DNA from: Plebeiibacterium marinum
GTDB lineage: Bacteria > Bacteroidota > Bacteroidia > Bacteroidales > Marinilabiliaceae
Direction: 5' to 3'
Length of the DNA: 21,037 nucleotides
NCBI RefSeq assembly: GCF_026013615.1
Contig: NZ_JAPDPI010000067.1
Span: 1 to 21,037 of the forward strand
The notes beneath the pieces were generated by a model, which saw only the letters and a list, made by a program, of their open reading frames with translations, searched no databases and had not been told where the DNA came from. Positions 1-15,107 of this stretch are shown piece after piece. The translations under genes and the position numbers were made by a program. Positions within the stretch are counted from its first letter, which is position 1; each line of letters begins with the position of its first letter.

Positions 1-81
1 GGAATCTCTTGCTCTAGAGCTTTTTGCTTCCTTTTTGGGGCAATGCCAAAAAGGGAGTTGGGTTTGGGACAACGTCCCAAT

Positions 82-125
82 ATCAAGAAATTCACTTCGT
101 GAATTTCTTAATTTAATGACATTGA
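82..125. repeat. Palindromic repeat module, copy A (perfect 11-bp-arm palindrome AAGAAATTCAC-ttc-GTGAATTTCTT at 85-109 plus conserved 3' tail)
   Basis: Inverted repeat read directly. About 32/42 nt are identical to copy B at 271-316, including a compensatory stem change (T:A here, C:G in copy B). Confidence 0.6.
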
Positions 126-270
126 TCGTGCGGCAGCCTGGGGGTTGGACGATTTGTATTCCGTAACGATCCCAAAAAACTTGAGAACTACCAACCTCAA
201 TACAAAAACATCCACAGGTAATTGGTATTTTAAATTTAATCAACCAATAACGCCAAGGAGGTAATGCTCT

Positions 271-316
271 TAACTTAAGAAATCCACTTTGTGGATTTCT
301 TAAGTTAAAGGTATTA
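271..316. repeat. Palindromic repeat module, copy B (perfect 14-bp-arm palindrome CTTAAGAAATCCAC-ttt-GTGGATTTCTTAAG at 274-304 plus conserved tail)
   Basis: Inverted repeat read directly. It is homologous to copy A about 192 bp upstream. GCCAAGGAGG occurs on both sides (252-261 and 318-327). Confidence 0.6.
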
Positions 317-351
317 GCCAAGGAGGGGGGCGAGGAGAACGCTATATTTTG

Positions 352-562
352 TGGTAGAACGGCTTTATGGGCTGGTAGAACGGGTCAGTGACTTGGTAGA
401 AACAGCATTTTGCCTTGGTAGAAGGGGTCAATTGGTTGGTAGAACGCCTCAAGTAGCTGGTAGAACAGCCCAATGACATGGTAGAAGTATCTCCCGGCGT
501 GGTAGAAGGGGGCAACAACATGGTAGAACGGGTCAGGGATCTGGTAGAACCTGTAAAATCAA
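352..562 (+). repeat. Phased tandem array: 10 units of 21 bp (one of 22 bp), each starting with an invariant TGGTAGAA core followed by a diverged 13-nt segment
   Basis: Core starts are at 352, 373, 394, 416, 437, 458, 479, 500, 521 and 542. The core is identical in 10/10 units. Degenerate extra copies lie at about 332 (GAGGAGAAC) and 563 (TGGTTTTGG). No ORF of 60 aa or more crosses the array, and the core contains TAG. Confidence 0.9.
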
Positions 563-626
563 TGGTTTTGGAATAATATCAAAAAAATCACGTGTCAAAT
601 AGTGGGTACAATATACTTTGTAATCA

Positions 627-1973
627 CTACAATATCCCCCTCGATTTAATTTCCAGGTACTTATTAATCGTATTTACCGTAAGCTCCCCCGGGGTTGTCA
701 GTATGGTTTGGATGCCGTGTTGGTTTAGTTCCCGAACAATCAGCTTTTTGTCGTAAACAAACTTCTCGGCAATGGTTTTAACATAGATGTCTTCTATGCT
801 TGTGGCCCGTTGGTCGGTAATTTTATTTACTTCGGTGTTTTTAAAAAATACAACAACCAATAAATGGGTTTTGGCAAGGGCCTGCAAATATGCGATCTGT
901 TTTCGTGCCGAGCTGATGCTTTCAAAATTGGTGTACAATACCAGTAAACTCCTGTGGGGGATCTTTCTTCTTACTTGTGCATAAAGCAGCTCAAGGTTGG
1001 ATTCCGGAAACTGTGTTTTTTGGTTGTATAACACTTCCATGATCGACTGCATATGTCGGCCATTTCTGGAAGCCGGTAACATAGAATGAATAGAGTTGCT
1101 GAATGTAAACAATCCTGCCTTATCATGCTTGAGCATGGCAATGTTTGATATAACCAGGGAAGTGTTTATGGCATAATCAAGTAGCGTCATTCCCTCAAAC
1201 GGCATTTTCATCGACCGGCTCATATCTATCAGGTTAAACACTTGCTGCGATTTCTCGTCCTGATACTGGTTTACCATTAAATGGCCTTTTCGGGCAGTTG
1301 CTTTCCAGTTGATGGTGCGGTAATCGTCGCCGGTAATATAGTCGCGTATCTGGTCAAACTCCATTTGGTGACCAATCTTCCTTATCTTTTTAATCCCTAC
1401 TTCAGTCAGGCGGTTTGAGATGGCCAATAGCTCAAATTTCTTCATCTCCACAAACGAAGGGTAAACTTTAACCATGGCATCCTGACTAAAAATATACCTC
1501 CTTTTAATCAGTTTTAAAGGTGAGCAGATGTTTATATTCATTGCCCCAAAAAGGTACTCGCCCCTGGTTACCGGTTTTACCTGGTAGTAAAAGTTCTTTT
1601 CCTGGGATGGATTTAATGAAAACTCTTCCATAAAATCCCTTTTCTGGAATTGGAACGGCAGTTCATCAATAACACTGACCCTTACCGGAAAATTGAATTT
1701 GTTGCTGATAAAAAGCTGTACTTTATTAGTGTCGCCATTCGAAAATCTTTCGGGTAAATTGCGCGAACCCAGTATCTTTTTATTACTTCCCTTGTGGTAT
1801 ATCAGAATAGTGTCTGTGATAAATAAAAAAACAAATAATGTAAACGATATCTGGGCCATAATAAATACCGGTTGGTAGTATTGCCCAACAATCATCAATG
1901 CCACAAGCAGTCCCAGTCCGGCAAAAAACCGGTTTGTTAAAAAGAAAGATTTCCAGAAGTTTTGCATATACAA
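627..1973 (-). CDS. DUF58 family protein (vWA-like partner of MoxR ATPases) with two N-terminal TM helices
   Basis: 448-aa ORF. It carries the hallmark DUF58 motif [35 protein letters not shown]. It lies 6 nt downstream of the MoxR gene, which is the canonical MoxR-DUF58 pairing. Confidence 0.88.
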
Positions 1974-1979
1974 TATTGT

Positions 1980-2960
1980 TTATCGTGGAATCTCTACCGA
2001 ATCAATAATTTGCCGGATAACAGCATGGGTGCTGATGCCTTCCATTTCTTTTTCGGGTGTCAGGATCACACGGTGCGTTAACACGGGCAGCAATACAAAT
2101 TTCACATCTTCCGGAGTCACAAAGTCACGTCCTTCAATGGCCGCATAGGCTTTGGCCGCATTTAAAACTGCCAATGAAGCTCTTGGACTGGCTCCCAGGT
2201 ATAAGCTGTTGGTGGTTCTTGTTTTTTCAACAATACGGGCAATATAGCTTACGATGTCTTTTTCAACGATCACTTCTTTTACTAAGGATTGAAAAGCGGT
2301 AATTTCATGGGCTTTAACTACCGGCACTACCTGGTCGAGCTCATGTTGACTCTTTCTGGTCTGAGCATTGGCAATAATCTCAATTTCTTCTTCCAGGCTC
2401 GGATATCCTAGTTCTATTTTAAACAGAAAACGGTCGAGTTGAGCTTCCGGCAAACGGTAAGTACCTTCATGTTCTATGGGGTTTTGTGTAGCAAAAACAA
2501 TAAACGGATTTTCCATTTTCCAACAATTGCCATCAATGGTAACCTGTCGTTCTTCCATCACTTCAAACAAGGCAGCCTGTGTTTTTGCCGGCGAGCGGTT
2601 TATCTCATCTATAAGTACCAGGTTTGAAAATATGGGGCCTTGTTTAAACTCAAATTTTGAAGTGCCCGAGTTGAAAATGGTAGTACCCAAAACATCCGAA
2701 GGCATTAGGTCGGGCGTAAACTGAATTCGCGAAAAGTCGGTGGATATGGTTTTGGCCAAAAGCTTTGATATCATGGTTTTGGCAATTCCCGGAACACCTT
2801 CGAGCAGTATGTGGCCATTGGCCAGCAGGGCGGTTAACATCAGGTCAATAATTTTTTCCTGACCCACAATAACTTTGGTTATTTCGTTTTTTATCTTAAA
2901 AACAGCTTTGTTTAGTTCATCCAGATTTAATCTGTTTTCAAAGGGGGTATTATTTTCCAT
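1980..2960 (-). CDS. MoxR-family AAA+ ATPase
   Basis: 326-aa ORF. Walker A is [11 protein letters not shown] and Walker B is LVLIDEINR. The [25 protein letters not shown]-terminus and C-terminal lid region ([31 protein letters not shown]) are typical of MoxR. Confidence 0.95.
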
Positions 2961-2971
2961 ATGGTTGCTTC

Positions 2972-4171
2972 TTATTTGTTTTTACATTTTTGATAGATAT
3001 ACTCAATGTTTTTACTGAAATGTTCCAGGTCTTCTTCGGTATAGGATGCGTTCAGTCTTAATCTTTCAGCCTGCGAAAAAAGTTTTTTGATGGTTTTATG
3101 GGGTATATCCAGTTTGTTTGATATTTCTTGTATTAAGTGTTCATTCGTTTCTGAGGTGTCAATAAAATATCGGGTACGTAAAAATTCAAGAAAGTACTTG
3201 AATCTTTTTTGGGCTATATCTAAATGGTTTTTTCGTTTAAAGTACAACCTGCCTATGGTTTCGATAAACGACAGCGTGGTGTTTCGGGGTGGATTTATTA
3301 CTGGAATTTTCCTTTGGTTTCTTTTTGCTGAGATCACAAGGTAGGTAACAATGGTAAAGAGCAGAATATACCAGGCATATTTAAGCCCTTTTTGCGACAG
3401 TATGTAGCGTAGCAAAGATGTAGATGGACGGGGCTTGGCTTTGTAGTATTCGTCCCATATTACCTTGCTGTTCTGTGGCAGGTAGGATAAAGTTTTAAAG
3501 GCGTATTCGTAATTAATATCCGAAACCAGGTTAAAATTAGTATAGGCTAAGGGATTCAGGTTAATAAAAAAGTTTCCCTGGCCATATTTTACCCTGATAA
3601 AATTGGTTTTTGCTTTATTGCCTAATCCTAAAACGGTTGTTTTCAGGGTGTCGTAATAATTGAAATGGATGTTTTGAAATGCTTTTTTGTAGGTGTATCC
3701 AAAGGGTGACTTCAAGGTTTTGTTGACCAGGTTAATCGTTATCGAATCATTGTAAATGTTCTTAATGTTGAAACTGGTGTTTATGTCAAAACCAATGGAA
3801 TCCAATACCAAATCGCTAAATTCTGAAGCTGCAATAAAGACATTGTTCCCTTTTTTTACATGACTGGTTATTTTATCAAAGTCGGTTTTATCCGGATGAA
3901 ATGAACTGTTGATAATAACCAGGTCTGCTTTTTCAAATTGATCTCCTGATAAAAAGTTGTATAAGGGCGAATGGCAGGTATATATTGCTGAAGAATCAAA
4001 AAGTGTTTTTAATTCATCAAACAGAATTTTGCTTCCGTAAGGAATGTCGTCATCTTTCGAAAAACTCAGGCTCCAGTCAATGGGTTTGGGGGTAATGATA
4101 AGAATGAATAGATATAGTACAAAACCAAATCCAAGTGCCCCAAAAACATATTTATTCTTTTTGTTACTCAT
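2972..4171 (-). CDS. DUF4350-like membrane-anchored protein (N-terminal TM, large extracytoplasmic domain, second TM, C-terminal cytoplasmic helical tail)
   Basis: 399-aa ORF. The N-terminal TM is followed by PKPIDWSLSFSKDDDIPYGSKILFDEL, which resembles DUF4350 proteins found upstream of MoxR. It overlaps the upstream gene by 8 nt. Confidence 0.7.
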   Translation of the reverse strand: MSNKKNKYVFGALGFGFVLYLFILIITPKPIDWSLSFSKDDDIPYGSKILFDELKTLFDSSAIYTCHSPLYNFLSGDQFEKADLVIINSSFHPDKTDFDKITSHVKKGNNVFIAASEFSDLVLDSIGFDINTSFNIKNIYNDSITINLVNKTLKSPFGYTYKKAFQNIHFNYYDTLKTTVLGLGNKAKTNFIRVKYGQGNFFINLNPLAYTNFNLVSDINYEYAFKTLSYLPQNSKVIWDEYYKAKPRPSTSLLRYILSQKGLKYAWYILLFTIVTYLVISAKRNQRKIPVINPPRNTTLSFIETIGRLYFKRKNHLDIAQKRFKYFLEFLRTRYFIDTSETNEHLIQEISNKLDIPHKTIKKLFSQAERLRLNASYTEEDLEHFSKNIEYIYQKCKNK

Positions 4172-4895
4172 GTTTGTTGGATTTAGGTGTCATACAATCA
4201 TTAAAATGATCAAACTGGGTTTTCATTGCCAAAAACTTTGATTCGTCCATAGCAAATTGTCCGTACCAAACATATTCGTAATTCAATACCAGCTGCTTGA
4301 ATTCCTGTCTGTTCTTTTTAGCTTTTAGTTCATAATAGTAGTCCAGGTTCGTTTTCCAGGGTTGCCAATCTATTTTATTTTCATGGTGTAATTGGCGTAA
4401 ACACAGCAAGTATAGAATCCTGACGGCTTCTCTGTGTGCTTTGTTGCGTATGCTCACCTGCAGCATGTTGTCCAGATTTTGATTGTGTATGTCATCACTA
4501 CCCTGTGCAAAATTTAGTTGAGATACGGGTTTGCTTGCACTTATAATGAAGATTCCTGAGGGCCTGATGCCAATGAGTTTGAGTATGATAAAAATAAGGA
4601 TGAGTACTCCGGTTCCAATTATCAGGTATTTAATGGTGTTGGGTTGTATGCCCATATCGGCAAATAATCCAAAGAACCATTTTATAAACTTATCCCAAAG
4701 TGATTCCGGCATTTCATACCTGTCGTACTTATAAATATCCATTTGCCTGTAGGCCTCCATGGTTTCAACAGAAGGGTGGCGGTACACAACTGTGGAATTG
4801 TCCCAGGCCGATACCTTTCCGGTTTGTTGCGAAAAGGTTAAAATGCCCGGGGCAACAATCAAACAGAATAATATAATACGATTTAAATACTTCAT
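4164..4895 (-). CDS. DUF4129-like protein (signal peptide, central TM, C-terminal DUF4129-type helical domain)
   Basis: 243-aa ORF. The C-terminal segment REAVRILYLLCLRQLHHENKIDWQPWKTNLDYYYEL resembles DUF4129. Its start codon directly abuts the stop of the upstream gene (4895/4896). Confidence 0.65.
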   Translation of the reverse strand: MKYLNRIILFCLIVAPGILTFSQQTGKVSAWDNSTVVYRHPSVETMEAYRQMDIYKYDRYEMPESLWDKFIKWFFGLFADMGIQPNTIKYLIIGTGVLILIFIILKLIGIRPSGIFIISASKPVSQLNFAQGSDDIHNQNLDNMLQVSIRNKAHREAVRILYLLCLRQLHHENKIDWQPWKTNLDYYYELKAKKNRQEFKQLVLNYEYVWYGQFAMDESKFLAMKTQFDHFNDCMTPKSNKHE

Positions 4896-5816
4896 TTAGT
4901 CGTTAGTGCTGTTGATGTTTTTAATTCGTTCCAGAAGAGAGGTGTTGTCCTTGTGTTCGCATAAGCTGAAATATTGGAACGAGAGGATCAGGGGAAGTAT
5001 TGGGGTGGAAATAACCGTAGTTAGTGTGGATGAAACTGAAATAATAATTGCAGGAATGATGTCCACTGTTTTACTGTTAGATAGCAGGCCTTTAGCTGTA
5101 AAATACGATGTTACCGGAACTGTCAATGCCATATTCAAGGCAAAGCCAATGATAATGGCAATAATGACCAAGCCAAATGTTTGCCACCAATGGCCCTTAA
5201 TCAGGTAAAAACACCTTCTGGCAGATTCCAGATAGGGTTCGTCTTCGTTTAGTTTGATAATCAGTATAAATGAAAATGCCAGGGATATATATATTACAAG
5301 AATCAAGGTGGCAAAAACACCAATGGCTGCCACAATTGGATTTCCCAGTGCTCCTAAAAACAAAGCTACTATACCATATGCAGTTCCAATCAGCAATAGG
5401 GTTAACAACGAGTATCCCAACAGGGCCATAAACTTGCCGGTAAACATGCTCCATACAGAATGGGTGTTTTCTGCCCGGTTGTTGTTTTTTGAATAATGAA
5501 CTACGTATGAATAGGTTAGTCCGTAAAAGAATAAATACATAATAATAGACAGGATGTAGATAAGGAAAACCTCGTTGGAGACGTTTTGACTAAATTCCTG
5601 GGCCTGACTTGGATTGGATAGTACTTTGAATAAGGTGTTAAAAGTGTTTCTGAAGTAAATAGTACTGAAAATTGAATATACCAGGACAGGGAGCCCTGCA
5701 TATAGAATAATCATTCTCCAGAATAATTTATATTCTTGCTTTATAAAGGCAAAAGTAGCGTTCAATACATCACTAAAACCGCGTTTCTTTTTGAGTTCAA
5801 TATTTTGTTCCATCAT
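4896..5816 (-). CDS. Polytopic integral membrane protein of unknown function
   Basis: 306-aa ORF with about 6 hydrophobic helices and no motif I can name. Its start overlaps the stop of the upstream gene by 1 nt (TAATG). Confidence 0.6.
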   Translation of the reverse strand: MMEQNIELKKKRGFSDVLNATFAFIKQEYKLFWRMIILYAGLPVLVYSIFSTIYFRNTFNTLFKVLSNPSQAQEFSQNVSNEVFLIYILSIIMYLFFYGLTYSYVVHYSKNNNRAENTHSVWSMFTGKFMALLGYSLLTLLLIGTAYGIVALFLGALGNPIVAAIGVFATLILVIYISLAFSFILIIKLNEDEPYLESARRCFYLIKGHWWQTFGLVIIAIIIGFALNMALTVPVTSYFTAKGLLSNSKTVDIIPAIIISVSSTLTTVISTPILPLILSFQYFSLCEHKDNTSLLERIKNINSTND

Positions 5817-6808
5817 TAATTGGTGTCTGTATGTTTTTGGTTTCTATTGTTTACTAATTTTTTATGTGCAAATATCGGGTTAATGAAAAAATACCAGATG
5901 ATAAAACCTAAGGAGCATATTATAATCAATAAGTTGACAAACAGAGGCATGGTGTCGTAATGCCTGGTTACAAAACTTTCTAAAAAGCCGGCAACGATAA
6001 ATACCGGAACCAGCCCAAGCATAATTTTTAAGCCGCGGATTACACCTTTTTGCAGAGCTACCACCCTTGGGTAAGTTCCGGGGAATAAATAGCTGTTGCC
6101 AAGTATTATCCCTGCTCCTCCGGCCAGGATAATGGCTGGTATTTCAAGAGCCCCATGGATATAAATGGTTAAGGTAGATACAGTGAATAGATTTTTTAAG
6201 TAAAAAAAAGTTTGAAAAGAGCCCAGCATAACCCCGTTCTGAAATAAAATAAATCCTACAGCAAGGGGTGTTAATATGCCAAAAATAAAGGCCATAAACG
6301 AAACTTTTATGTTATTGAAAGTAATAAAAAAGAACATTTCAAATTCACTCCTGCTGCTATATATCCCCATGGGATCGCCTTTTTCAATGTTATCAAGGGT
6401 TGTATTTACATAGGCATCCCCTGTAATCAGGCGTATAAACCCATCGTCGTTAACCGCCGAAATGCCACCCAGTACAAATGATATTGTAAAAATGATAACA
6501 GAGACATAGAAGTATTTCCGGGCGTGGTACAGTTCCAACGGGAGCTCTTTGAACCAGAAATCTTTGAAACGGTTTGATTTTTCTTTTTTGTTTTTATATA
6601 CTTCCTGGTGGGTTTGTACTGCCAATGAGTTAAGGTATGATATGGTTGGCGATTCGGGAAAGAAAGTACGTGCGTAGGCCAGGTCATCTGTGAGTTGAAT
6701 AAACTGTTCTGCAAGCTCATCAGGATTGATGCTTCCCGTATGCTTGATGTTCTTTTCAAAGCTTTGCCATCGGTTCTTGTTTCTGTTGATAAACGTGATT
6801 TCTTTCAT
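5816..6808 (-). CDS. SpoIIM-like (stage II sporulation protein M / DUF95 family) integral membrane protein
   Basis: 330-aa ORF. A roughly 90-aa soluble N-terminus precedes multiple TM helices with an HGALEIPAIILAGGAG-type motif typical of this family. It is the first gene of the minus-strand operon. Confidence 0.65.
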   Translation of the reverse strand: MKEITFINRNKNRWQSFEKNIKHTGSINPDELAEQFIQLTDDLAYARTFFPESPTISYLNSLAVQTHQEVYKNKKEKSNRFKDFWFKELPLELYHARKYFYVSVIIFTISFVLGGISAVNDDGFIRLITGDAYVNTTLDNIEKGDPMGIYSSRSEFEMFFFITFNNIKVSFMAFIFGILTPLAVGFILFQNGVMLGSFQTFFYLKNLFTVSTLTIYIHGALEIPAIILAGGAGIILGNSYLFPGTYPRVVALQKGVIRGLKIMLGLVPVFIVAGFLESFVTRHYDTMPLFVNLLIIICSLGFIIWYFFINPIFAHKKLVNNRNQKHTDTN

Positions 6809-6862
6809 AAATCAAGTCAGGTAACTGAATGCTAAAATGATTCAATTTTTAGTTTAAAACAT

Positions 6863-6870
6863 CAAATATA
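6863..6870 (-). promoter_or_regulatory. Candidate Bacteroidota -7 promoter box (TATATTTG on the minus strand) for the six-gene operon
   Basis: CAAATATA on the plus strand is TAnnTTTG on the minus strand, about 55 nt upstream of the start codon at 6808. This is a motif match only. Confidence 0.3.
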
Positions 6871-7002
6871 ATTAATCAGCTCAAATTTGTTACATTTGGT
6901 GAAGCTATAATTTATCAGTATTGCTTAGTGCTTGTAAGAAAACTGGGTTTTGAATACTATAAATTAAATTGTTGATTGGTATATAGTACTATAAAGCGTA
7001 TT

Positions 7003-7722
7003 ATGGAGTTTGTAAATATTGACACCACACAAAATGTGAATCTTGAGTTTAAGTCGGCAAGTATCGGTGATAGGATACTGGCATACTGTTTCGACTTGTT
7101 GATTATTTTAACCTGGAGTATTACCTGGACGATCATCATAAACAAAATGGGCGGTTTTGAAGTGTGGAATATTGTTTTTTCATTGCCCGTAGTGTTTTAC
7201 AGTTTGTTATGCGAACTTTTGTTGAACGGGCAATCCTTTGGAAAAATGGTGTTTAAAATTAAAGTGGTAAAACTGGATGGCAGCGAGTTGACCCTGGCTA
7301 CTTGTTTGGTGCGTTGGCTGTTTCGTATTGTTGATAATTTGATCTTGTTTGGGAGTATTGCTGTTTTAACCATCATATTGAGTAAAAAATCTCAACGGCT
7401 TGGAGATATCACTGCCGGTACTACCGTTATTAAGCTAAACAAGGCTAATTTATTCGAGGACACTAGTTTTGTTGAAGTTCCCGAGAGCTACGATTTAAAA
7501 TACCCTCAGGTGAATCTTTTAAATGATACTGATGCAAACATTATTAAAGACGTGCTCAAGTTAGAAAAGGCTTCAGGTCCTGGGGATGTTGATTCTGTTG
7601 AAAGTATCTTAAAAAAGACACAAAGGGCTATTCAACAAAAGTTAAGCCTTACCGAAGTGGAAGTTGAGCCAAAAGAGTTCCTGAAATCAGTTTTGATAGA
7701 TTATAATCATATGAATCAATAA
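7003..7722 (+). CDS. RDD family membrane protein
   Basis: The ORF track opens at a TTG at 6976, but the ATG at 7003 (MEFVNIDTTQNV...) is the more plausible start. IGDRILAYCFDLLI, GQSFGKMVFKIKVV and QRLGDITAGTTVIK are typical RDD-domain features. It is divergent from the MoxR operon. Confidence 0.8.
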   Translation: MEFVNIDTTQNVNLEFKSASIGDRILAYCFDLLIILTWSITWTIIINKMGGFEVWNIVFSLPVVFYSLLCELLLNGQSFGKMVFKIKVVKLDGSELTLATCLVRWLFRIVDNLILFGSIAVLTIILSKKSQRLGDITAGTTVIKLNKANLFEDTSFVEVPESYDLKYPQVNLLNDTDANIIKDVLKLEKASGPGDVDSVESILKKTQRAIQQKLSLTEVEVEPKEFLKSVLIDYNHMNQ

Positions 7723-7731
7723 ACTTTGGGT

Positions 7732-8886
7732 ATGAGATATATAATAGTTTATATGTTGCTAATTGGGTTGTTCGCCTGTAATAAACCTGTAGAACAAAAA
7801 GTGCCGGTTGTAGATGGACAGGTTATTAATGCAAATGGGGGCAAATTGTTTTTCTACCAGCAGAATACGGATATTAAGCTTTTGGATACCATTACAGTTA
7901 GTGACCAGGGAAGCTTTCGGATATATAAGGAAAGTGTTACTGCCCCGGGGTTTTATTTTTTACAGTTCGAAAATGGGCAACGTATTAACCTTTTTCTTCG
8001 TCCGGCCGATTTTATTCAGCTTCAGGTAGATGCCAATGATGTTATAAATAGCTGCAAAAGCAAGAATTCAAAAACTATGAATGCACTATGGGAAATCGAC
8101 CGCAATACAAAGGAACTGAAAACCCATCTGGACCGTATTTCGGGTGATTTTGCAGGTATTGTAGGAAAGGATTCTGCAGTGGTTCTTTATCAAAGTCTGG
8201 TTGCCCAAAAAGATAGCCTCCTGAAAAAATATAAGAGTAAAGCATTAAAACTGTTGAAAGGCATTGATGATGAAGTAGTGAAATGGTATACACTCAATCA
8301 AAAGGTTGCAAATATTATTTTGTTTTCCCTTGAGGAGGATCTAAAGCTATTTCTGGGCAATTCTGAAAAATTGATGAAAGATGACAGGTTAAGTGAACTG
8401 TTTTATGACTATGACCAGGATTTAATGAAGGCCTACTCTTTTATACGAAGGACGGAAAGATACTCAAAAGGTGAGCAAATGATTGAGCTCAAAGCCAGAA
8501 CCAATTGGGATGAGATGCTACCCCTGGATAAACTGAATGCAAAATTAATTCTGTTAGTATTATGGAATGGTGATGTTGAAGCTTGTGAGGTCAGACTAAA
8601 GGAAATAGAAAGTAATAGAAAGAAATATGGGCACCGGGGATTGAAGGTGTTAATGGTGGCTTATGAAAATAATAAAGAATCATGGAAAGAAAATATCTCT
8701 CGTTTAAGTAGTTCGTATTGGAATATTGTTGATACAACAGGAATAGAGTCTACCGATCTGGTGGAACTAGGAGTAAGGTCATTGCCATTTAACTTTTTGG
8801 TTTCCCCGGAGGGAACTATTGTTGAACGTGAATTGTGGGGCGCAGAGTTGGAAACGGGGGTAGAGAATTTTCTTAAAAATTATTAA
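7732..8886 (+). CDS. Lipoprotein with a C-terminal TlpA/thioredoxin-like fold and a degenerate active site (VEAC instead of CxxC)
   Basis: The lipobox is LIGLFAC. The ORF track starts at a TTG at 7726, and the ATG at 7732 is more likely. The C-terminal segment LVLWNGDVEACEVRLKEIE...LKVLMVAYENNKESWKENI...LPFNFLVSPEGTIV aligns with the TlpA pattern FWASWCxPC...VSLD...W...IPxxFLIDxxGxI. Confidence 0.75.
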   Translation: MRYIIVYMLLIGLFACNKPVEQKVPVVDGQVINANGGKLFFYQQNTDIKLLDTITVSDQGSFRIYKESVTAPGFYFLQFENGQRINLFLRPADFIQLQVDANDVINSCKSKNSKTMNALWEIDRNTKELKTHLDRISGDFAGIVGKDSAVVLYQSLVAQKDSLLKKYKSKALKLLKGIDDEVVKWYTLNQKVANIILFSLEEDLKLFLGNSEKLMKDDRLSELFYDYDQDLMKAYSFIRRTERYSKGEQMIELKARTNWDEMLPLDKLNAKLILLVLWNGDVEACEVRLKEIESNRKKYGHRGLKVLMVAYENNKESWKENISRLSSSYWNIVDTTGIESTDLVELGVRSLPFNFLVSPEGTIVERELWGAELETGVENFLKNY

Positions 8887-8952
8887 TATATTTGGGCGCG
8901 GAACAACTAAAATAGAGAGTTGTCAGCATTACCTGTAATCAAAATATGCAAA

Positions 8953-10119
8953 ATGAATATGAGTAGATTTATATTGTTTTTTAGCCTTTTGCTTCTTTTA
9001 TCTGCCTGTGGCGAGAAAAATAAAATGAGAGTAAGCGGAAAAATTGAAAATGGCGAAGGTAAAGTGTTATACCTGAAGCAGCTGAACCTGAGTGGTGAAG
9101 TGGATGTGGATTCCGTGGTTCTGAAGGCCAAAGGTAATTTTAAGTTTTCCCTGCCAAAACTCGAAAATCCAACCTTCTTTTTGTTAAAACTGTCGGATAA
9201 AAATTTCATAACCTTGTTGGCTGATTCAACAGAAAAGATTGAAGTGATCGCCAATGCAGAAAATCTATCAAAACACTATGATGTAAGTTCTTTAGGTTCA
9301 AATTATATACAGGCTCTGAATACGAGGTTTGACAGGACAAAAACTGAGGTGGATAGTTTGATGAAGATATACAACGATACACCAAAGGATGAGAAAGAGC
9401 TGATAGAGGAGGTGCGTCAGGATTTAATTGAAGTTATAGATAACCAAAAAGTTTTTGTCAGGGACTTTGTTATGGCAAACCCTCGTTCTTTTGCTAGTTA
9501 TTATGCCGTATTTCAGCGTTTTGATGATGGTACGCTGGTGTTAAATGCATATGATAAAGAAGATTTAAACCTGTTCTCAACTGTGGCCACCAGCCTGAGC
9601 TTGTTTTATCCTGAATCTCCCCGGTCAGAACAACTTAAGAATTTTGTGCTGAATATCCGCAAAGAAATTAAGATAGGAGAGCTTCAGTCAAAACTTAAAA
9701 ATGAAGCACAAAGTAATATTCCCGACATTGAAGAAGAGGATTTGAACGGGAAAAAGATAAAGCTCTCTTCTTTAAAAGGTAAATTGGTATTGTTGTCGTT
9801 TTGGGCATCATGGGATGAAAAATCAAGAAAAGAAAACAAAAACCTGATTAAGATCTACAACAAATATAAAGCTAAAGGATTCGAAGTTTATCAGGTGTCG
9901 CTCGACAGGAGTAAAATTCTTTGGGAAGGGGCAGTGGAACAAGATAAGCTTCCATGGATAAATGTAAGCGATTTAAGGTTTACAGACTCCTATCCGGCAC
10001 GTATATATAATGTGCAACAATTGCCAGCCAATTATTTGATCAGCAAAAAAGGAGAAGTGATAGGTAAAGATTTGTTCGGAAGAATACTTGATGAGAAGCT
10101 AAATGACTTGTTAAATTAA
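8953..10119 (+). CDS. Lipoprotein with an N-terminal DUF4369-like domain and a C-terminal TlpA/thioredoxin-like fold lacking both catalytic cysteines (FWASWDEKSRKEN)
   Basis: The ORF opens at 8920, but the signal peptide/lipobox MNMSRFILFFSLLLLLSAC starts at 8953. GKIENGEGKVLYL is DUF4369-like. LVLLSFWASWDEKSRKENKNLIKIYNKYKAKGFEVYQVSLD...LPANYLISKKGEVIGKDL is a clear TlpA-family scaffold. Confidence 0.85.
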   Translation: MNMSRFILFFSLLLLLSACGEKNKMRVSGKIENGEGKVLYLKQLNLSGEVDVDSVVLKAKGNFKFSLPKLENPTFFLLKLSDKNFITLLADSTEKIEVIANAENLSKHYDVSSLGSNYIQALNTRFDRTKTEVDSLMKIYNDTPKDEKELIEEVRQDLIEVIDNQKVFVRDFVMANPRSFASYYAVFQRFDDGTLVLNAYDKEDLNLFSTVATSLSLFYPESPRSEQLKNFVLNIRKEIKIGELQSKLKNEAQSNIPDIEEEDLNGKKIKLSSLKGKLVLLSFWASWDEKSRKENKNLIKIYNKYKAKGFEVYQVSLDRSKILWEGAVEQDKLPWINVSDLRFTDSYPARIYNVQQLPANYLISKKGEVIGKDLFGRILDEKLNDLLN

Positions 10120-10141
10120 ATTTTGCATAAAAGATATGGTG

Positions 10142-10170
10142 AAGGAACTCAGTTTGGGTTCCTTTTTTTG
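10142..10170 (+). terminator. Intrinsic terminator after the second TlpA-like gene
   Basis: AAGGAAC-tcagtttgg-GTTCCTT followed by TTTTTG, located 23 nt after the stop codon. Confidence 0.65.
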
Positions 10171-10214
10171 TGTGTACTTGAATATTTACTTCATTTGGTT
10201 TAAAAAGTATAATG

Positions 10215-10247
10215 CTTGCTTTTTCACGTAAAAAACTGATATATTTG
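10215..10247 (+). promoter_or_regulatory. Candidate promoter for lpxH (TTG ... TATATTTG)
   Basis: TATATTTG at 10240-10247 matches the Bacteroidota TAnnTTTG -7 box, with CTTG about 21 nt upstream. It lies 39 nt before the ATG at 10286. Confidence 0.35.
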
Positions 10248-10285
10248 TCCGTTCAAAAAAATTAAGCAGTTGCTTATTGGTTAAA

Positions 10286-11050
10286 ATGGAATTGCAGCAA
10301 GAGGGTAAAAAAATATATTTTGCATCAGATGTTCATCTGGGCGCACCATCTATTAAAGACCATAAGGCGCATGAAAAAATGTTTGTTGATTGGTTAAATG
10401 AAATAAAGCCAAGCACCAAAGCGCTTTATCTCTTAGGTGATATATTTGATTTTTGGTACGAATACCGTTATGTTGCCCCTCGAGGATTCACACGTTTTTT
10501 AGGAAAAATAGCAGAATTTACCGATGCCGGGATTCCTGTGCATTTTTTTACCGGGAATCATGATATCTGGGTGTTTGATTATCTTCCGAAAGAAACGGGG
10601 ATGGTGCTCCATAGGGAACCTGTGTCGGTTGAACTGGACGGTAAAAAGTTTTTTATCGGACATGGTGATGGCTTAGGACCATATGATAAGGGATATAATT
10701 TTTTAAAAAGTATTTTTACCAATACAACTTTACAGTGGCTTTTTTCGCGTTTGCATCCTAACTTTGCAGTAGGCCTGGCAAAAAAATGGTCGGCGCATAG
10801 CAGGTTAAAGAACGAAAACTCGGAAGAAGCAAAATTTTTGGGTGAAGAAAAAGAATATTTAATGCTTTATGCCAAAGATGTTTTAGCAAAAGAATATTTT
10901 GATTATTTCATTTTTGGGCACAGACATATTGATATAAACAGACCTATTGGCGATGGTAGTCGTTTTGTATACCTGGGGGATTGGGTAAAACTCAGGTCGT
11001 ATGGAGTCTGGGATGGCAGTACGTTTGAACTAAAGTATTATAAAAAGTAG
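10286..11050 (+). CDS. lpxH: UDP-2,3-diacylglucosamine diphosphatase (LpxH-type calcineurin-like metallophosphoesterase)
   Basis: Metallophosphoesterase motifs are SDVHLG, LGDIFDFWYEY, GNHDIW, GHGDG and GHRH, in a protein of LpxH size (about 254 aa from the ATG at 10286; the ORF track begins at a TTG at 10277). Confidence 0.85.
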   Translation: MELQQEGKKIYFASDVHLGAPSIKDHKAHEKMFVDWLNEIKPSTKALYLLGDIFDFWYEYRYVAPRGFTRFLGKIAEFTDAGIPVHFFTGNHDIWVFDYLPKETGMVLHREPVSVELDGKKFFIGHGDGLGPYDKGYNFLKSIFTNTTLQWLFSRLHPNFAVGLAKKWSAHSRLKNENSEEAKFLGEEKEYLMLYAKDVLAKEYFDYFIFGHRHIDINRPIGDGSRFVYLGDWVKLRSYGVWDGSTFELKYYKK

Positions 11051-11120
11051 TTATAAAATAAGCTTGGTGGCTGTTGTGGTAACATGGTGGTCGCTAATGT
11101 GTTAGCAAAAGTCGAATACA

Positions 11121-12197
11121 ATGGGAATTTATGCTGTTGCCACAAGTACGGGCTGTTATCTGCCCGAAGTAGTGGTGAAAAATATTGATTTTGCCAATCA
11201 GTTATTTTTAAATAGCGATGGCAGCAAGATCGAAACTCCGGGCAAGGAGATAGTAGAAAAGTTTGAGCAGATTACCGACATTACCGAAAGACGTTGTGTG
11301 GGCGAAGGATTGGTTACTTCAGATATTGCTGCAATAGCTGGTAAGCGAGCACTGGATGCCGCCAATTTTGATAAGGAAAACCTTGATTACATTATAGTAG
11401 CCCATAACCTTGGGGATATTAAGCACGGGAGTAGGTTTCCGGATATTTTGCCAACCCTGGCATCAAGGGTTAAACAAAAACTCGATATTAAAAATCCAAA
11501 AACAGTAGCTTACGATATTACATTTGGGTGTCCCGGCTGGACTCAGGCCATGATTCAGGCCAATTATTATTTAAAGTCTGGAGATGCCAAAAGTGCGCTT
11601 GTTATCGGTGCCGATACCTTGAGCCGGATGATGGACCCTCATGACCGTGATTCGATGATTTTTGCCGATGGTGCTGGTGCTGCACTTCTTGAGGCTGTTG
11701 AAAGTGATGAGCCAGTAGGTATTTTAAAGCACGTATCGCGTACCGATACCGAGGAGCATCTTGATCTGTTGCAAATGGGACCATCATATAATCCGGAATT
11801 AAAGCATGATCACCTGTATCTGAAAATGTTGGGACGTAGATTATATAATTATGCGTTGACTAATGTGCCTCTGGTAGCTCAGGAGTGCCTGGATAAGAAC
11901 GGACTTACTTTAACTGACGTTAAAAAAGTTCTGATCCATCAGGCTAATGCCAAAATGGATGAAGCCATCCTGAAAAGGATATTCCGCTTATATGGAATCA
12001 GGGAAGTGGATTACGATGTGATGCCAATGACCATTAAAACCTTGGGAAATAGTTCTGTGGCTACAGTCCCAACCTTGTTCGACATGGTTGTTAGGAACCA
12101 ATTAAAAGGGCATGAGCTAAATAGTGGCGATTATGTTATGATGACCTCCGTGGGGGCCGGTATGAACATTAATGCTTATATGTACAAAATGCCATAA
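11121..12197 (+). CDS. 3-oxoacyl-ACP synthase III family protein (FabH-like KAS III)
   Basis: 358-aa ORF. The catalytic triad context is preserved: FGCPGW (Cys), HQANAKM (His), GNSSVATVP (Asn). The thiolase-fold C-terminus is SVGAGMNINA. Confidence 0.85.
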   Translation: MGIYAVATSTGCYLPEVVVKNIDFANQLFLNSDGSKIETPGKEIVEKFEQITDITERRCVGEGLVTSDIAAIAGKRALDAANFDKENLDYIIVAHNLGDIKHGSRFPDILPTLASRVKQKLDIKNPKTVAYDITFGCPGWTQAMIQANYYLKSGDAKSALVIGADTLSRMMDPHDRDSMIFADGAGAALLEAVESDEPVGILKHVSRTDTEEHLDLLQMGPSYNPELKHDHLYLKMLGRRLYNYALTNVPLVAQECLDKNGLTLTDVKKVLIHQANAKMDEAILKRIFRLYGIREVDYDVMPMTIKTLGNSSVATVPTLFDMVVRNQLKGHELNSGDYVMMTSVGAGMNINAYMYKMP

Positions 12198-12257: not shown

Positions 12258-12505
12258 ATGCCTAATTATATCAATATCATCTTTGAACTGCCTCCTGAAT
12301 TTTCTTTATGTTTGCTGGTCTCCTTGTTGAAAAATAGCGATATTGTAGTTTTTATATTACTGACCGTTAAGTATTTGGAGTAACTTCTTAGGGTCTTTGA
12401 AAGGATATAAAATCCACATATCTATAATTTGTAAGCTACAAATTGGCTCTACACCTATTAACGGACATGCTTTTCTTTACGTGCTGAAAGCACAGCTTAT
12501 CATAG

Positions 12506-12574
12506 CCCCAGGTAAAACGCAGTGACACCTGGGGTTTTTCAGTTTTATACCTCAGCGTCCTGTAAGGACAACTC
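12506..12574 (+). repeat. Left REP-like inverted-repeat block (hairpin A CCCCAGGT...ACCTGGGG and hairpin-containing module B CAGCGTCCTGTAAGGACAACTC)
   Basis: Read directly. Reverse-complement matches on the right flank are 25/29 (A) and 21/22 (B). Confidence 0.8.
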
Positions 12575-12626
12575 GTTCATATTTTATAAAAAATAGTGTT
12601 ATATTTAATTCAAAATATTATCTAAT

Positions 12627-13082
12627 ATGTCGCAATCTTTATCAAAACTCTATGTACATATCATCTTTCACGTTAAAGACCCATCTCATACATTCATCAG
12701 GAAACCTGATAAAAATAGTCTGTATAATTATATAGGTTCTATCATAAAAGACAATGGCTCTATACCTTTAATTATTAATGGTACAGAAGATCATATGCAT
12801 ATCTTCTGTGTTATGTCGAAAAATATAGCACTATCTATGTTTGTTAAAGATATTAAGAGACATAGTAGTAGGTGGCTAAAAGGTTTTGATAATTTTTATC
12901 GGGTATTTAAATGGCAGGGTGGTTATGGTGGTTTTTCCGTTAGTTCGTCTTTATACGATAAAACATTTAATTATATAAAAAAGCAGGAAAGACATCATGA
13001 AACCATGTCTTTTAAAGATGAATATTTATTGTTCTTAAAGGAATATGGTATCGAATATAATGAGGAGTATTTGTGGGGATAA
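12627..13082 (+). CDS. IS200-like / REP-associated (RayT-type) Y1 HUH tyrosine transposase
   Basis: 151-aa ORF. The N-terminus is LYVHIIFHVK, the HUH motif is DHMHIF, and WQGGYGGFSVS is present. The catalytic Tyr context is NYIKKQERHH. All are characteristic of the Y1_Tnp family. Confidence 0.85.
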   Translation: MSQSLSKLYVHIIFHVKDPSHTFIRKPDKNSLYNYIGSIIKDNGSIPLIINGTEDHMHIFCVMSKNIALSMFVKDIKRHSSRWLKGFDNFYRVFKWQGGYGGFSVSSSLYDKTFNYIKKQERHHETMSFKDEYLLFLKEYGIEYNEEYLWG

Positions 13083-13088
13083 ATTCTT

Positions 13089-13157
13089 GAGTTGTCCTTT
13101 CAGGACGCTGATTGATATTGCTTATACACCCCAGATGACACTGCGTTCTATCTGGGG
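13089..13157 (+). repeat. Right REP-like inverted-repeat block (B' GAGTTGTCCTTTCAGGACGCTG and A' CCCCAGAT...ATCTGGGG)
   Basis: It is the reverse complement of the left block. In A' a G-to-A change on one arm is matched by C-to-T on the other, so the stem is preserved. Confidence 0.8.
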
Positions 13158-13307
13158 CTAGGATGAACCAGGCCTTCGGCCTGCTTGTATTTAAAACCAA
13201 ACAAGGATCAGCTAAAAACTCTTTTTCATCAGGCCCCAATTTTGTTCCTGATCCCTTTTTTCTTTTATTTTGTGAAAGATGTTTTATAAACTGAGTTCAA
13301 TAAAAAT

Positions 13308-14591
13308 ATGATGGAAATAGTGGTTGCGTTTTTGGTTGGGAGTATAGGCTGTTTTGCCTTTTTATATTCTTATTATACTTCAAAAAAGTCACAGCTTAGG
13401 CAACAGGTTCAATTTTTTTCTGAGGAGAACAATAATCTGAAATCTCAAAATGTTGAGATCCTGCAAAAATTAGAAAAAGTTAATAATGAGCTGATGCAGG
13501 CAAAAATGCATATTGCTGCCATTGATACTGAAAATGCTCATCTGATTAACTTAAATAAACAACGCCAGCAAGAGATTGAAAACCTTCATGAAAGGCTCAG
13601 TAAGGAGTTTGAAACCATTGCCGACCGTGTATTGATTAATCGTTCAAAGCAAATAAGCGAACAGAGTAACCAAAAGCTATCGGATATATTGTCGCCCTTG
13701 CAGGAGCGCATCACACGTTTTGAAAAGAAGGTGGAAGAAACCTATGATAAGGAGGTAAGGGATAAGTTAAGCCTAAAGGCCGAAGTAAAAAGATTATACG
13801 ATTTAAACCACAGAATCAGTGAAGAAGCTCAAAACCTATCCAAAGCTTTAAAAGGAGATGTGAAAAAGCTGGGCAATTGGGGGGAAGTTATTCTTGAAAG
13901 GGTACTGGAGCAGTCCGGATTGACCAAAGGCCGCGAATATCGTCGCGAAGTGGTGGATGAAAACAGCAATGGTGCCACTATTCGCCCGGATGTTATTATA
14001 GATCTGCCTGAAGGAAAGCACCTGATTATTGATTCAAAAATGTCATTGTCGGCCTATGAAGAGTTTGTAACGGCTGAAGATGAGGAAACAAAAGCAGTTG
14101 CCTTGAAAAACCATAAAGAAAGATTACGGCAGCATGTTAAAGATTTGTTCGAAAAAAATTATATCTCTGCTAAAAACATCAACTGTCCGGACTTTGTGTT
14201 GATGTTTATTCCTGTTGAAGCTTCATTTGCCGCAGCGGTTGAGAATGATAATGACCTTTTTTCTTTTGCCTGGGAAAAGAAGATAGTCCCTGTGAGTCCG
14301 TCAACATTGTTGGCTACATTAAAAACAGTTAGTTCCATATGGCGGCAGGAAAACCAAAATAGAAATGCACAGGAAATTGCCCGTCAGAGTGGGGCTTTGT
14401 ACGATAAGTTTGTTGGTTTTGTGGCAGATCTGGAGAAAATAGGTTCCAATATCAATACACTTCAAGGTAATTACGATACGGCATTGTCAAAACTTCAGCA
14501 AGGTAAGGGTAATCTTATTTCACGGGCCGAAAAAATTAAAAGTCTGGGAGCCAAAACAAATAAATCAATAGAAGATAAGTTTTTGAATTAA
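13308..14591 (+). CDS. rmuC: DNA recombination protein RmuC
   Basis: 427-aa ORF with an N-terminal TM and a long coiled coil. The C-terminal RmuC nuclease-like domain includes GNWGEVILERVLEQSGL, GREY, RPDVIIDLPEGKHLIIDSKMSL and VLMFIPVE. Confidence 0.92.
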   Translation: MMEIVVAFLVGSIGCFAFLYSYYTSKKSQLRQQVQFFSEENNNLKSQNVEILQKLEKVNNELMQAKMHIAAIDTENAHLINLNKQRQQEIENLHERLSKEFETIADRVLINRSKQISEQSNQKLSDILSPLQERITRFEKKVEETYDKEVRDKLSLKAEVKRLYDLNHRISEEAQNLSKALKGDVKKLGNWGEVILERVLEQSGLTKGREYRREVVDENSNGATIRPDVIIDLPEGKHLIIDSKMSLSAYEEFVTAEDEETKAVALKNHKERLRQHVKDLFEKNYISAKNINCPDFVLMFIPVEASFAAAVENDNDLFSFAWEKKIVPVSPSTLLATLKTVSSIWRQENQNRNAQEIARQSGALYDKFVGFVADLEKIGSNINTLQGNYDTALSKLQQGKGNLISRAEKIKSLGAKTNKSIEDKFLN

Positions 14592-14608
14592 TCATATCAG
14601 GAAAATAG

Positions 14609-14729
14609 TTCGGGATATAGTCGTAATTAATTCGGGATGTGTTCCTGTTTCGTTCGTAGCTCCTTCGGTTCTCGTTCGGTTCTCCTTCGGTTCTCGTTCG
14701 GTTCTCGTTCGGTTCTTCTTCGGTTAAGA
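14609..14729 (+). repeat. 11-bp phased tandem repeat (consensus TTCGGTTCTCG), 6 well-conserved units plus about 5 decayed in-phase units
   Basis: TTCGG starts at 14664, 14675, 14686, 14697, 14708 and 14719, exactly 11 bp apart. Decayed units in the same phase are at 14609 (TTCGGGAT), 14620, 14631 (TTCGGGAT), 14642 and 14653. Confidence 0.88.
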
Positions 14730-14747
14730 GGTATTATAACCGAAGAA
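14716..14747 (+). other. Perfect 11-bp-stem hairpin (TTCTTCGGTTA-10 nt-TAACCGAAGAA) built from the last repeat unit
   Basis: Inverted repeat read directly. There is no adjacent T-tract on either strand, so it is not a canonical terminator. Confidence 0.6.
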
Positions 14748-14929
14748 AGACCAAATTAATTCCTAAGGAATTGCATTCGAATCGCGACTAAGGTACGATG
14801 CCTTCCCGACCACAGCATAAAGAATGTTCCACGTGGATAAAAAAGCAATAGAAATTTTAATGTATACGGAAGGTTTGTTTACGATTTAATATAAATAACG
14901 CATTTTTTACAACAAATTAATATCGTAAG

Positions 14930-14981: not shown

Positions 14982-15029
14982 ATGACAAATTTAGTACATC
15001 ATCACGGACATCATTATAATCTACCATAG
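14982..15029 (+). CDS. His-rich leader peptide mini-ORF (MTNLVHHHGHHYNLP) of the his operon
   Basis: The sequence is ATG ACA AAT TTA GTA CAT CAT CAC GGA CAT CAT TAT AAT CTA CCA TAG. 5 of 15 codons are His. It sits between a promoter-like box and an intrinsic terminator, directly upstream of hisG. Confidence 0.7.
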   Translation: MTNLVHHHGHHYNLP

Positions 15030-15066
15030 GTGGGCCGGGATTGTTGTATATAAAAATATAATTATG

Positions 15067-15107
15067 AAAGAGGGCTTGCCGATAAGGAAGCCCTCTTTTT
15101 TTGTTTT
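15067..15107 (+). terminator. Intrinsic terminator in the his leader (candidate attenuator)
   Basis: AAAGAGGGCTT-10 nt-AAGCCCTCTTT (11-bp stem) runs into TTTTTTTGTTTT. It is 37 nt after the leader stop and about 95 nt before the hisG start. Confidence 0.75.

Follow-up and report, generated by a model that had tools for sequence, protein, structure and literature searches.

Near one end of a 21,037-bp stretch of DNA from Plebeiibacterium marinum, which we refer to throughout as the window, a motif of eight bases, TGGTAGAA, recurs ten times at an almost perfectly regular interval. The question raised by this locus is what kind of element such an array represents, and whether its sequence, its relatives and its surroundings tell us what it might serve.

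Anatomy of the array

The array and its possible outliers are the following:

352-562, plus strand: ten-unit direct-repeat array, each unit with the invariant core TGGTAGAA, a semi-conserved CGGGTCA and a variable tail
332-340, plus strand: possible decayed edge copy GAGGAGAAC, 6/9 match to TGGTAGAAC
563-571, plus strand: possible decayed edge copy TGGTTTTGG, 4/9 match, in phase

Exact copies of TGGTAGAA begin on the plus strand at 352, 373, 394, 416, 437, 458, 479, 500, 521 and 542, all in the same direct orientation, and the window contains only one further copy, on the minus strand at 7852. The period is 21 bp, the sole exception being the 22-bp interval from 394 to 416 (unit 394-415); the spacers of nine units are accordingly 13 bp long, and that of the remaining one 14 bp. 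Base 9 of the unit is C in 6/10 cases, G in 3/10 and A in 1/10. An initial annotation of the locus had described the ten units, their period, the one 22-bp unit and the choice of C, G or A at base 9, and we found all of these positions again in the sequence. When TGGTAGAAC was searched with at most 1 mismatch, 17 matches were obtained against 3.6 expected, ten of them being the array units, and this count was reached by 0/100 shuffles.

The initial annotation had further held that the core is invariant, that the next bases follow a weak consensus and that the tail is unrelated between units. The information content bears this out: it is 2.0 bits at each of the 8 core positions, falls to 0.4-0.8 bits over the following 7, whose consensus is CGGGTCA, and to about 0.15-0.64 bits over the last 6, and the mean pairwise identity of the spacers is 0.37. 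Tandem Repeats Finder recovers only 2.5 units, because the units diverge strongly outside the core. The autocorrelation of the array has peaks at lags 21 (0.57) and 42 (0.48) only, and a 10-11-bp sub-period, as expected of OmpR/PhoB-like half-sites, was sought in it and not found.

As had been noted before, the array is richer in G+C than its surroundings (46% in 332-583 vs 38% in the window). The spacers taken alone reach 57% G+C, which in a 38% G+C genome suggests a foreign origin. Its plus strand contains 69 G vs 35 C. Of the decayed copies proposed earlier for the two edges, TGGTTTTGG is in phase with the array, whereas GAGGAGAAC lies 20 bp and not 21 bp from unit 1, and both matches are weak. 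The array is no assembly artefact, since an independent ENA assembly (L094, described below) has it with small differences. It is a real, statistically unambiguous and well-delimited feature, and its core and spacing look constrained.

Constraint on the core and on its spacing

All reading frames through the array are broken, whether the cause is the 22-bp unit or a stop such as the TAG within the core. The longest open reading frame that crosses it measures 59 aa (342-521, minus strand), in agreement with the initial statement that none of 60 aa or more does so, and the array is non-coding. For the stop-free frames, we calculated how probable it would be for ten units to use identical synonymous codons, taking codon usage from the window's own genes and assuming the encoded amino acids to be fixed. 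The P values run from 2.5e-7 (frame LVE) down to 4e-18 and are thus at most 2.5e-7 in each of the five stop-free frames; therefore, protein-level selection cannot yield the invariant 8-mer. The test supports a core that is held constant at the nucleotide level.

A closely related sequence, L094 (ENA ERZ21878193), was found via a database protein 99% identical to the DUF58 protein of the window, and it aligns to window positions 275-11965 at 98.7% identity, array included. Its array has nine units; the copy number differs solely by a deletion that removes exactly 21 bp, appears to begin and end within spacers, and keeps the phase. Between the two strains, the cores have 0/72 substitutions, compared to 6/118 in the spacers, 8/136 in the immediate flanks and 14/254 (5.5%) at all non-core intergenic positions. 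At the latter rate, about 4 core changes would be expected, and 0 are seen. For cores vs spacers, Fisher's test gives P = 0.055, and the core-versus-spacer comparison is a weak one (P about 0.02-0.05) in that the array is present in two sequences only. With n = 2 sequences, it is suggestive of a core that is conserved between strains while spacers and flanks change. Selection on the core as a recognition site, which the initial annotation had proposed, thus gains suggestive evidence from the codon test and from the L094 cores.

The same intergenic alignment contains 3 indel events per 14 substitutions. That the spacers have kept their length despite a near-random sequence and despite common indels implies selection on spacing, and although the comparison comprises n = 2 sequences, it is suggestive of a constraint on the spacing itself. 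A fixed spacer length combined with a randomised spacer sequence fits a recognition-site array with a spacing requirement.

One may ask at this point whether the array could lack a function today, being either a neutral minisatellite or what is left of a coding sequence with heptad repeats. A unit of 21 bp corresponds to 7 codons, the minus strand at the array has a stop-free stretch of 78 codons, and two of the unrelated stretches that share the 8-mer, L009 and L045, appear to be coding heptads (LVExxxK, Prevotella) in stop-free stretches. Neutral minisatellite decay, however, cannot explain the array, because 8 contiguous columns are perfect while 13 are randomised. The cores are, moreover, unchanged between strains whose flanks differ by 5.5%. 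A heptad-repeat protein-coding sequence was rejected on account of the frames broken by stops and by the 22-bp unit, and of the synonymous positions that are invariant at the P values given above. Both versions are disfavoured, and we regard an array of this origin as extremely improbable.

The array is cargo of an insertion

The surroundings of the array contain the following features:

627-1967, minus strand: DUF58 gene (446 aa counted from the ATG), which closes the conserved MoxR/DUF58 operon
584-626, no strand assigned: A+T-rich spacer (30% G+C) from the array to the DUF58 stop codon, with no strong terminator
262-316, no strand assigned: near-perfect palindrome with 26-nt arms and a 3-nt loop, 88% complementary, 36 bp from unit 1
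121-150, minus strand: isolated part (CCCCCAGGCTGCCGCACGAT) of the terminal inverted repeat found in a ~165-bp MITE-like element
70-124, no strand assigned: diverged second copy of the palindrome, from the alignment to L094

The array lies 65 bp downstream of the DUF58 stop codon. The DUF58 protein of the window has its best matches in Marinilabiliaceae (Saccharicrinis, Labilibacter), and its gene forms the boundary between the conserved core genome and the array-bearing insertion. In L237, L238 and L239 (about 75% DUF58 identity), DUF58 is followed after 7-138 bp by a convergent priA gene, and the DUF58/priA junction is therefore empty in three of the four relatives examined. The fourth, L095, carries unrelated cargo at this junction, namely thioredoxin-like, SusC/D, FecR and ECF sigma genes. 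L094 has a ~4.2-kb insertion there that includes the array, with priA at its far side. The array thus belongs to the cargo of an insertion that is specific to this lineage and sits at a DUF58/priA hot spot. It is not part of the MoxR/DUF58 operon, and its placement next to a housekeeping operon, to which the initial annotation had drawn attention, is incidental.

In L094, a long palindrome and non-coding DNA of high G+C content share the insertion with the ~165-bp MITE-like element, which is present three times and has terminal inverted repeats of 25 nt. There are also small cassettes. They comprise a 70-aa fragment similar to the C-terminal end of an R subunit of type I restriction (HsdR), a 279-aa secreted protein of unknown function and, from toxin-antitoxin systems, a Phd/YefM-YoeB pair and RelE/ParE-like fragments. 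Homologues of the 279-aa protein were sought as a guide to sister islands and gave only distant matches on short contigs. The palindrome at 262-316 is the only strong secondary structure in the region. L094 has one hybrid copy of this palindrome, and window positions ~117-274 represent an indel between the two strains.

If the array is a set of binding sites, a gene for the cognate protein might be expected nearby, and the initial annotation had suggested inspecting the genes on the left of the window for one that encodes a Rep, a ParB, an integrase or a regulator. The ~4 kb of left flank supplied by L094 contain no Rep, ParB, Par, integrase or regulator gene, and no Rep, Par, integrase or regulator gene lies in the 21-kb window either. 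Likewise, there are no transposase genes in the L094 island, and PADLOC found nothing significant among the island proteins.

The location of the array invites the idea that a Tn7-like or Mu-like transposon once ended here and left its phased ~22-bp transposase-binding sites behind. The array sits at the edge of an inserted island, close behind the stop codon of a conserved gene and at a junction that is an insertion hot spot, and the right end of Tn7 has direct repeats with a 21-22-bp geometry. This idea is at odds with the absence of transposase genes and with the search for inverted partner copies of TGGTAGAA, of which none was found in the island or near priA at up to 1 mismatch. Also, ten sites are far above the 3-4 per end that are typical. 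A transposon end is disfavoured by these observations, and we hold it to be very improbable.

Does the motif act in RNA?

A search of the array against Rfam 15, with permissive as well as gathering thresholds, gave no match, and a scan for tRNA and tmRNA found none. Folding of both strands yielded no consistent structure for an array RNA. A Bacteroidetes-type promoter (TAnnTTTG -7 box) was absent from both strands of window positions 1-1000, and scans for sigma-70 promoters and for terminators remained at or below shuffle expectation.

These results bear on the possibility that the array is transcribed and titrates an RNA-binding protein or a small RNA, in the style of the CsrB/RsmZ sponges. 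The transcript could be a 3'UTR produced by read-through of the DUF58 operon, which would extend to the palindrome and comprise ten GUUCUACCA motifs, or it could come from the cassette side and carry UGGUAGAAC. Such a role would be helped by the lack of a convincing terminator from the DUF58 stop codon to the array and the presence of the strong palindrome just beyond the latter, by the C-rich and G-poor composition of the minus-strand version, and by the largely unstructured nature of the array as RNA, which would leave its motifs accessible. However, there is no dedicated promoter of the Bacteroidetes type on either strand and no Rfam family, and the motifs are not presented in hairpin loops. 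The strict spacer length and the in-phase 21-bp indel are unexpected for a sponge RNA, and the relatives have almost no 3'UTR at the DUF58/priA junction. We consider an RNA sponge unlikely.

Two further RNA-related or defence-related classes were rejected. In type III toxin-antitoxin RNAs of the ToxI kind, repeats of ~34-40 nt that hardly differ from one another precede a terminator and a toxin gene. Here, the units measure 21 nt and have divergent halves, the array has no Rfam match, and no toxin gene lies downstream of it because DUF58 is convergent. CRISPR arrays have repeats of at least 23 nt, spacers of at least about 26 nt, and cas genes or a leader. In the present array, the repeat is 8-9 nt and the spacer 12-13 nt, and no cas genes were found by Pfam on 10 window ORFs and 8 island ORFs or by PADLOC on the latter (for all other window ORFs, the identification came solely from precomputed Pfam tags of their L094 orthologues). 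When the array spacers were compared to nearby DNA as a test for a CRISPR-like origin, only chance 10-mers were shared.

Comparison with protein-binding arrays

Among arrays that are bound by proteins as double-stranded DNA, the initial annotation had pointed to the direct repeats of LytTR-type regulators. The geometry agrees, in that 9 + 12 = 21 bp, whereas the LytTR consensus [TA][AC][CA]GTTN[AG][TG] has no match on either strand of 321-600. Furthermore, LytTR sites come as pairs or triplets upstream of a promoter, unlike the ten copies between convergent genes that we see here.

Iteron arrays of plasmids include the seven 22-bp repeats of the R6K gamma-ori and the nine 19-bp repeats of P1 incA, and also those of F incC and RK2. 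Like plasmid and phage iterons, the present array consists of tandem direct repeats of ~20 bp that recur every two helical turns and number up to about ten, their core being better conserved than its flanks; it is likewise non-coding and associated with addiction modules. Its repeats also agree with those expected of iteron-type origins, where direct repeats of 17-22 bp follow one another about every 22 bp. What sets it apart is its chromosomal location and the lack of a rep gene within 4 kb, of DnaA boxes and of a clear DNA-unwinding element; an adjacent initiator (rep) gene was found neither in the window nor in the ~4-kb L094 flank. Ten contiguous copies are at the upper end for known iteron arrays, and to our knowledge the core sequence is unlike that of any known iteron.

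The suggestion of origin activity is not borne out either. No DnaA box with at most 1 mismatch lies within ~400 bp of the array, the nearest one (976-984) being inside the DUF58 coding sequence. The GC skew is positive along the whole window and shows no switch. As for an A+T-rich unwinding element, only the 43-bp stretch of 30% G+C is present near the array, and signs of replicon activity were likewise not found. A blastn search with the L094 array region and its GC-rich flank (L094 11342-12100) gave no match in 72,556 plasmid and 50,697 phage records, and the array thus also differs from iterons in having no DNA similarity to the plasmid and phage records searched.

The second class to be considered is that of partition centromeres (ParR, ParG, omega or StbA type), examples being R1 parC with 10 x 11 bp, R388 stbDR with 2 x 5 repeats of 9 bp and pSK41 parC with 4 x 20 bp. 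In centromeres of types Ib and II, several direct repeats in phase serve as the nucleus on which a protein filament forms cooperatively. The array has such phased direct repeats; its copy number of about 10 matches that of parC and stbDR, and its ~20-bp period that of pSK41. These centromeres, however, lie directly upstream of parMR or stbABC, where they act as operator, whereas no adjacent operon for an NTPase and an adaptor (par) was found in the window or in the L094 island. Membership of the array in the iteron-origin or centromere class is accordingly not established, given that the searches for an adjacent rep or par gene and for origin features came up empty.

Searches for related arrays

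We scanned 185,579 species genomes, IMG/VR and the JGI metagenomes for three copies of TGGTAGAA with gaps of 12-14 bp, and obtained 93 matching stretches in the species genomes, 21 in IMG/VR and at least 120 in the JGI metagenomes. Most of the matches are ordinary tandem repeats in which the whole 21-bp unit is conserved and the unit differs by locus, and many sit in long open frames. A cross-domain element sharing TGGTAGAA was rejected, since nearly all matches listed are whole-unit tandem repeats with unrelated units. In the variable-spacer matches L066, L071, L146, L196, L202 and L204, a Rep gene beside the TGGTAGAA repeats was not evident. Among the matches listed, blastn of the window against the matching stretches found no similarity, and a second array of the window's kind was seen in none of the genome, viral and metagenome collections, be it in Bacteroidota or elsewhere. 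The initial annotation had asked whether related arrays keep the core while spacers and copy number vary: this is what we see in L094, where the core is kept and the spacers and the unit number differ, and no further instance was found among the matches listed. Literature searches with the 8-mer, read on one strand or the other, brought up nothing relevant, its occurrences being primer-like throughout.

How often would a shared core be met by chance? A generic scan of 1.47 Mb of fetched loci found core-plus-variable-spacer arrays with other cores at a rate of ~4 per Mb; therefore, a shared 8-mer is expected by chance in a collection of 596 Gb.

In Bacillaceae, numerous arrays are scattered over the genomes in non-coding DNA; they are built on the core (AGT)TGGTAGAA(W), repeat every 21 bp and have variable spacers. 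Their hosts are Alkalicoccus, Bacillus sp. CSSed10, B. infantis, Sutcliffiella and Virgibacillus soli. They stand beside hairpins or terminators, usually directly after a terminator; a neighbouring gene common to them was sought and not found, and they have no Rfam family. A resemblance to the tRNA D-loop (AGTTGGTAGAGC) and an extended -10 element were both considered for these arrays and dropped, as neither is conserved across them. The Bacillaceae arrays share with the window array the 8-mer core, the 21-bp period, the variable spacers and the non-coding nature. They differ in belonging to another phylum, in occurring in many dispersed copies per genome, in a core that is less strict (TGGAAGAA and TGGCAGTA variants) and in their extended consensus, AGTTGGTAGAAW, and there is no homology to the window array beyond the core. 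The identity of the cores is probably a coincidence.

A related precedent is the STAR element of Staphylococcus aureus, which like the array has a short conserved direct repeat with variable spacers, is non-coding and has no known function. In contrast, STAR occurs in many dispersed copies with ~40-bp spacers, whereas the array is the single one known and has strict 21-bp phasing. The array could then be one copy of a dispersed intergenic repeat family, STAR-like or Bacillaceae-like, with no role specific to this locus. The region is indeed a patchwork of repeats, the palindrome being present twice and the MITE-like element three times in L094, and the Bacillaceae genomes show that same-core 21-bp arrays can be numerous and dispersed with no common neighbour gene. 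But only a single array is present in about 31 kb (window and L094), the three collection scans brought up no other Bacteroidota array among the matches listed, and the shared core of the Bacillaceae arrays can be coincidental given the frequency of arrays with other cores. We judge membership in a dispersed family to be rather unlikely.

A putative docking array for a DNA-binding protein

The reading that we prefer, tentatively and at a little below even confidence, is that of an orphan iteron- or centromere-like array for cooperative protein binding that was brought in with mobile DNA. The array would be a docking site on double-stranded DNA for a sequence-specific protein encoded elsewhere, with one protein subunit per TGGTAGAA core and possibly weaker contacts to the next ~7 bp. 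Given a spacing of two helical turns, up to ten subunits could line up on one face of the DNA and bind cooperatively, and the bound subunits may form a nucleoprotein filament or a handcuffing complex. The working principle would be the one known from plasmid iteron and incompatibility arrays and from type Ib and type II partition centromeres. The array would have arrived with the ~4.2-kb insertion of mobile DNA between DUF58 and priA and would now be an orphan with no cognate gene in cis. We infer that the array may derive from the maintenance module of a plasmid or an ICE; the binder, if it still exists, would be encoded elsewhere.

Several properties of the locus point in this direction. An invariant core, copies in direct orientation, a two-turn period and a fixed spacer length are best fitted by cooperative binding on one face of double-stranded DNA, and the unit-wise change in copy number, the lack of RNA structure and of a promoter, and the degraded mobile DNA rich in addiction modules fit the same explanation. 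A plasmid maintenance region that combines a toxin-antitoxin module with iterons, which are bound by the antitoxin, is described in one report (PMC7848731). What counts against a docking array is that neither a rep, par, integrase or regulator gene nor a DnaA box, a skew switch or a similarity to plasmids or phages accompanies it within the stretches searched. The same holds for the lack of a second such array among the matches listed, and for the number of copies, ten being at the upper end of what iteron arrays are known to have.

A more far-reaching version would have the array serve as a platform recognised by a trans-acting system that has not been described so far and is still selected for in this chromosome, with the same-core arrays of Bacillaceae belonging to the same widespread system. 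One could think of a centromere associated with the island, of an element for silencing or for setting a boundary, or of a structure assembled one unit at a time from a repeat plus a spacer of fixed length. We regard this version as quite improbable, and on present evidence the array is not a new class of system. The description that suits it best is that of a chromosomal, orphan variant of the iteron- or centromere-type binding array.

Implications

A practical lesson from this locus is that the array belongs to the DUF58/priA insertion hot spot and not to the MoxR/DUF58 operon. If no binder exists, it would still provide a clean example of an intergenic repeat with conserved core and spacing. 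If, on the other hand, a protein binds, the ten-site array would be a ready-made probe for fishing out this binder. Binding would also mean that an iteron- or centromere-type architecture exists in chromosomal and partner-less form in Bacteroidota, a phylum in which plasmid maintenance and the biology of islands are poorly known.

Core-bearing arrays in other genomes

Pattern scans for arrays carrying the core returned many 21-bp-period, non-coding arrays scattered through Bacillaceae genomes (L032, L034, L035, L061, L064, L068, L070, L072, L084, L092, L042, L048 and L053). The core of these arrays reads (AGT)TGGTAGAA(W), whereas the spacers vary. Most of the arrays lie directly 3′ of a gene terminator. 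Virgibacillus soli (L005, L024, L033, L046, L073, L076, L081 and L085) carries at least 10 arrays, each with up to 56 units, and these display a 42-bp super-period. The array of B. infantis is followed by a terminator, a layout as for a small RNA gene. A comparison of neighbouring genes across the Bacillaceae loci showed none in common, and an Rfam search with these arrays returned no family. In Sutcliffiella sp. (L048, 4497-4740), a run of three TGGTAGAAT units in forward orientation precedes six units of ATTCTAACA, all with a 21-bp period. ATTCTAACA nearly matches the reverse complement of the core. The two arrays face each other, and their arrangement in the sequence suggests a symmetric, putative protein-binding region.

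A different context of the core was seen on two contigs of one uncultured MAG (L066, ~3080-3165; L071, ~60-175), where the perfect palindrome ATTTCTACCGGTAGAAAT adjoins three units of TGGTAGAA in direct orientation, whose spacers vary. MazF/RelE-type toxin genes are found nearby, and a Rep gene was not seen on these contigs. The palindrome and its three units look like an operator or an iteron set.

Further repeats and a leader region in the window

Genes and elements of the window:

12627-13082, IS200-like Y1 transposase gene (Pfam PF01797)
15070-15102, G+C-rich hairpin with a T-run, 3′ of a leader peptide and upstream of hisG
15203, hisG, downstream of the leader peptide and the hairpin

The transposase gene is bracketed by 92-nt inverted repeats (12483-12574 and 13089-13180) that contain hairpins, and the layout of the whole element (12483-13180) is similar to that of RAYT/REPIN systems. 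Directly downstream of rmuC, there are six copies of an 11-bp tandem repeat, CTCCTTCGGTT (14660-14725), which can alternatively be parsed as two copies of 33 bp. Its period equals one helical turn, and the units are conserved over their full length.

The leader peptide upstream of hisG, MTNLVHHHGHHYNLP* (14982-15029), is His-rich. Together with the hairpin, it makes up a leader region (14982-15102) that looks like a his-operon attenuator in this Marinilabiliaceae genome; no family reached its gathering score in an Rfam search of the region.

The DUF58/priA junction

An A+T-rich long palindrome with 26-nt arms occurs twice in the window (70-124 and 262-316), whereas L094, the contig of a closely related strain, has a single, hybrid copy (11625-11665). 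The two strains therefore differ by an indel of ~158 bp (window ~117-274), which looks like the product of recombination between the palindrome copies.

A MITE-like element of ~165 bp occurs three times in the L094 island (11965-12135, 13300-13576 and 14490-14765) and has 25-nt terminal inverted repeats, CCCCAGCTGCCGCACGATTGCATCG; a solo terminal repeat of this element lies at 121-150 of the window. The copies set apart small cassettes, namely an HsdR fragment, a 279-aa secreted protein, Phd/YoeB and RelE/ParE fragments. This layout is reminiscent of integron or CALIN arrays, and an attC consensus was not seen in the region.

In three relatives (L237, L238 and L239), the junction carries no insert. 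In another (L095, 11342-20063), it is occupied by a thioredoxin/SusCD/FecR/ECF-sigma block, and in the lineage of the window by the island with its toxin-antitoxin genes and the array. The convergent DUF58/priA junction of the Marinilabiliaceae is an insertion hot spot.
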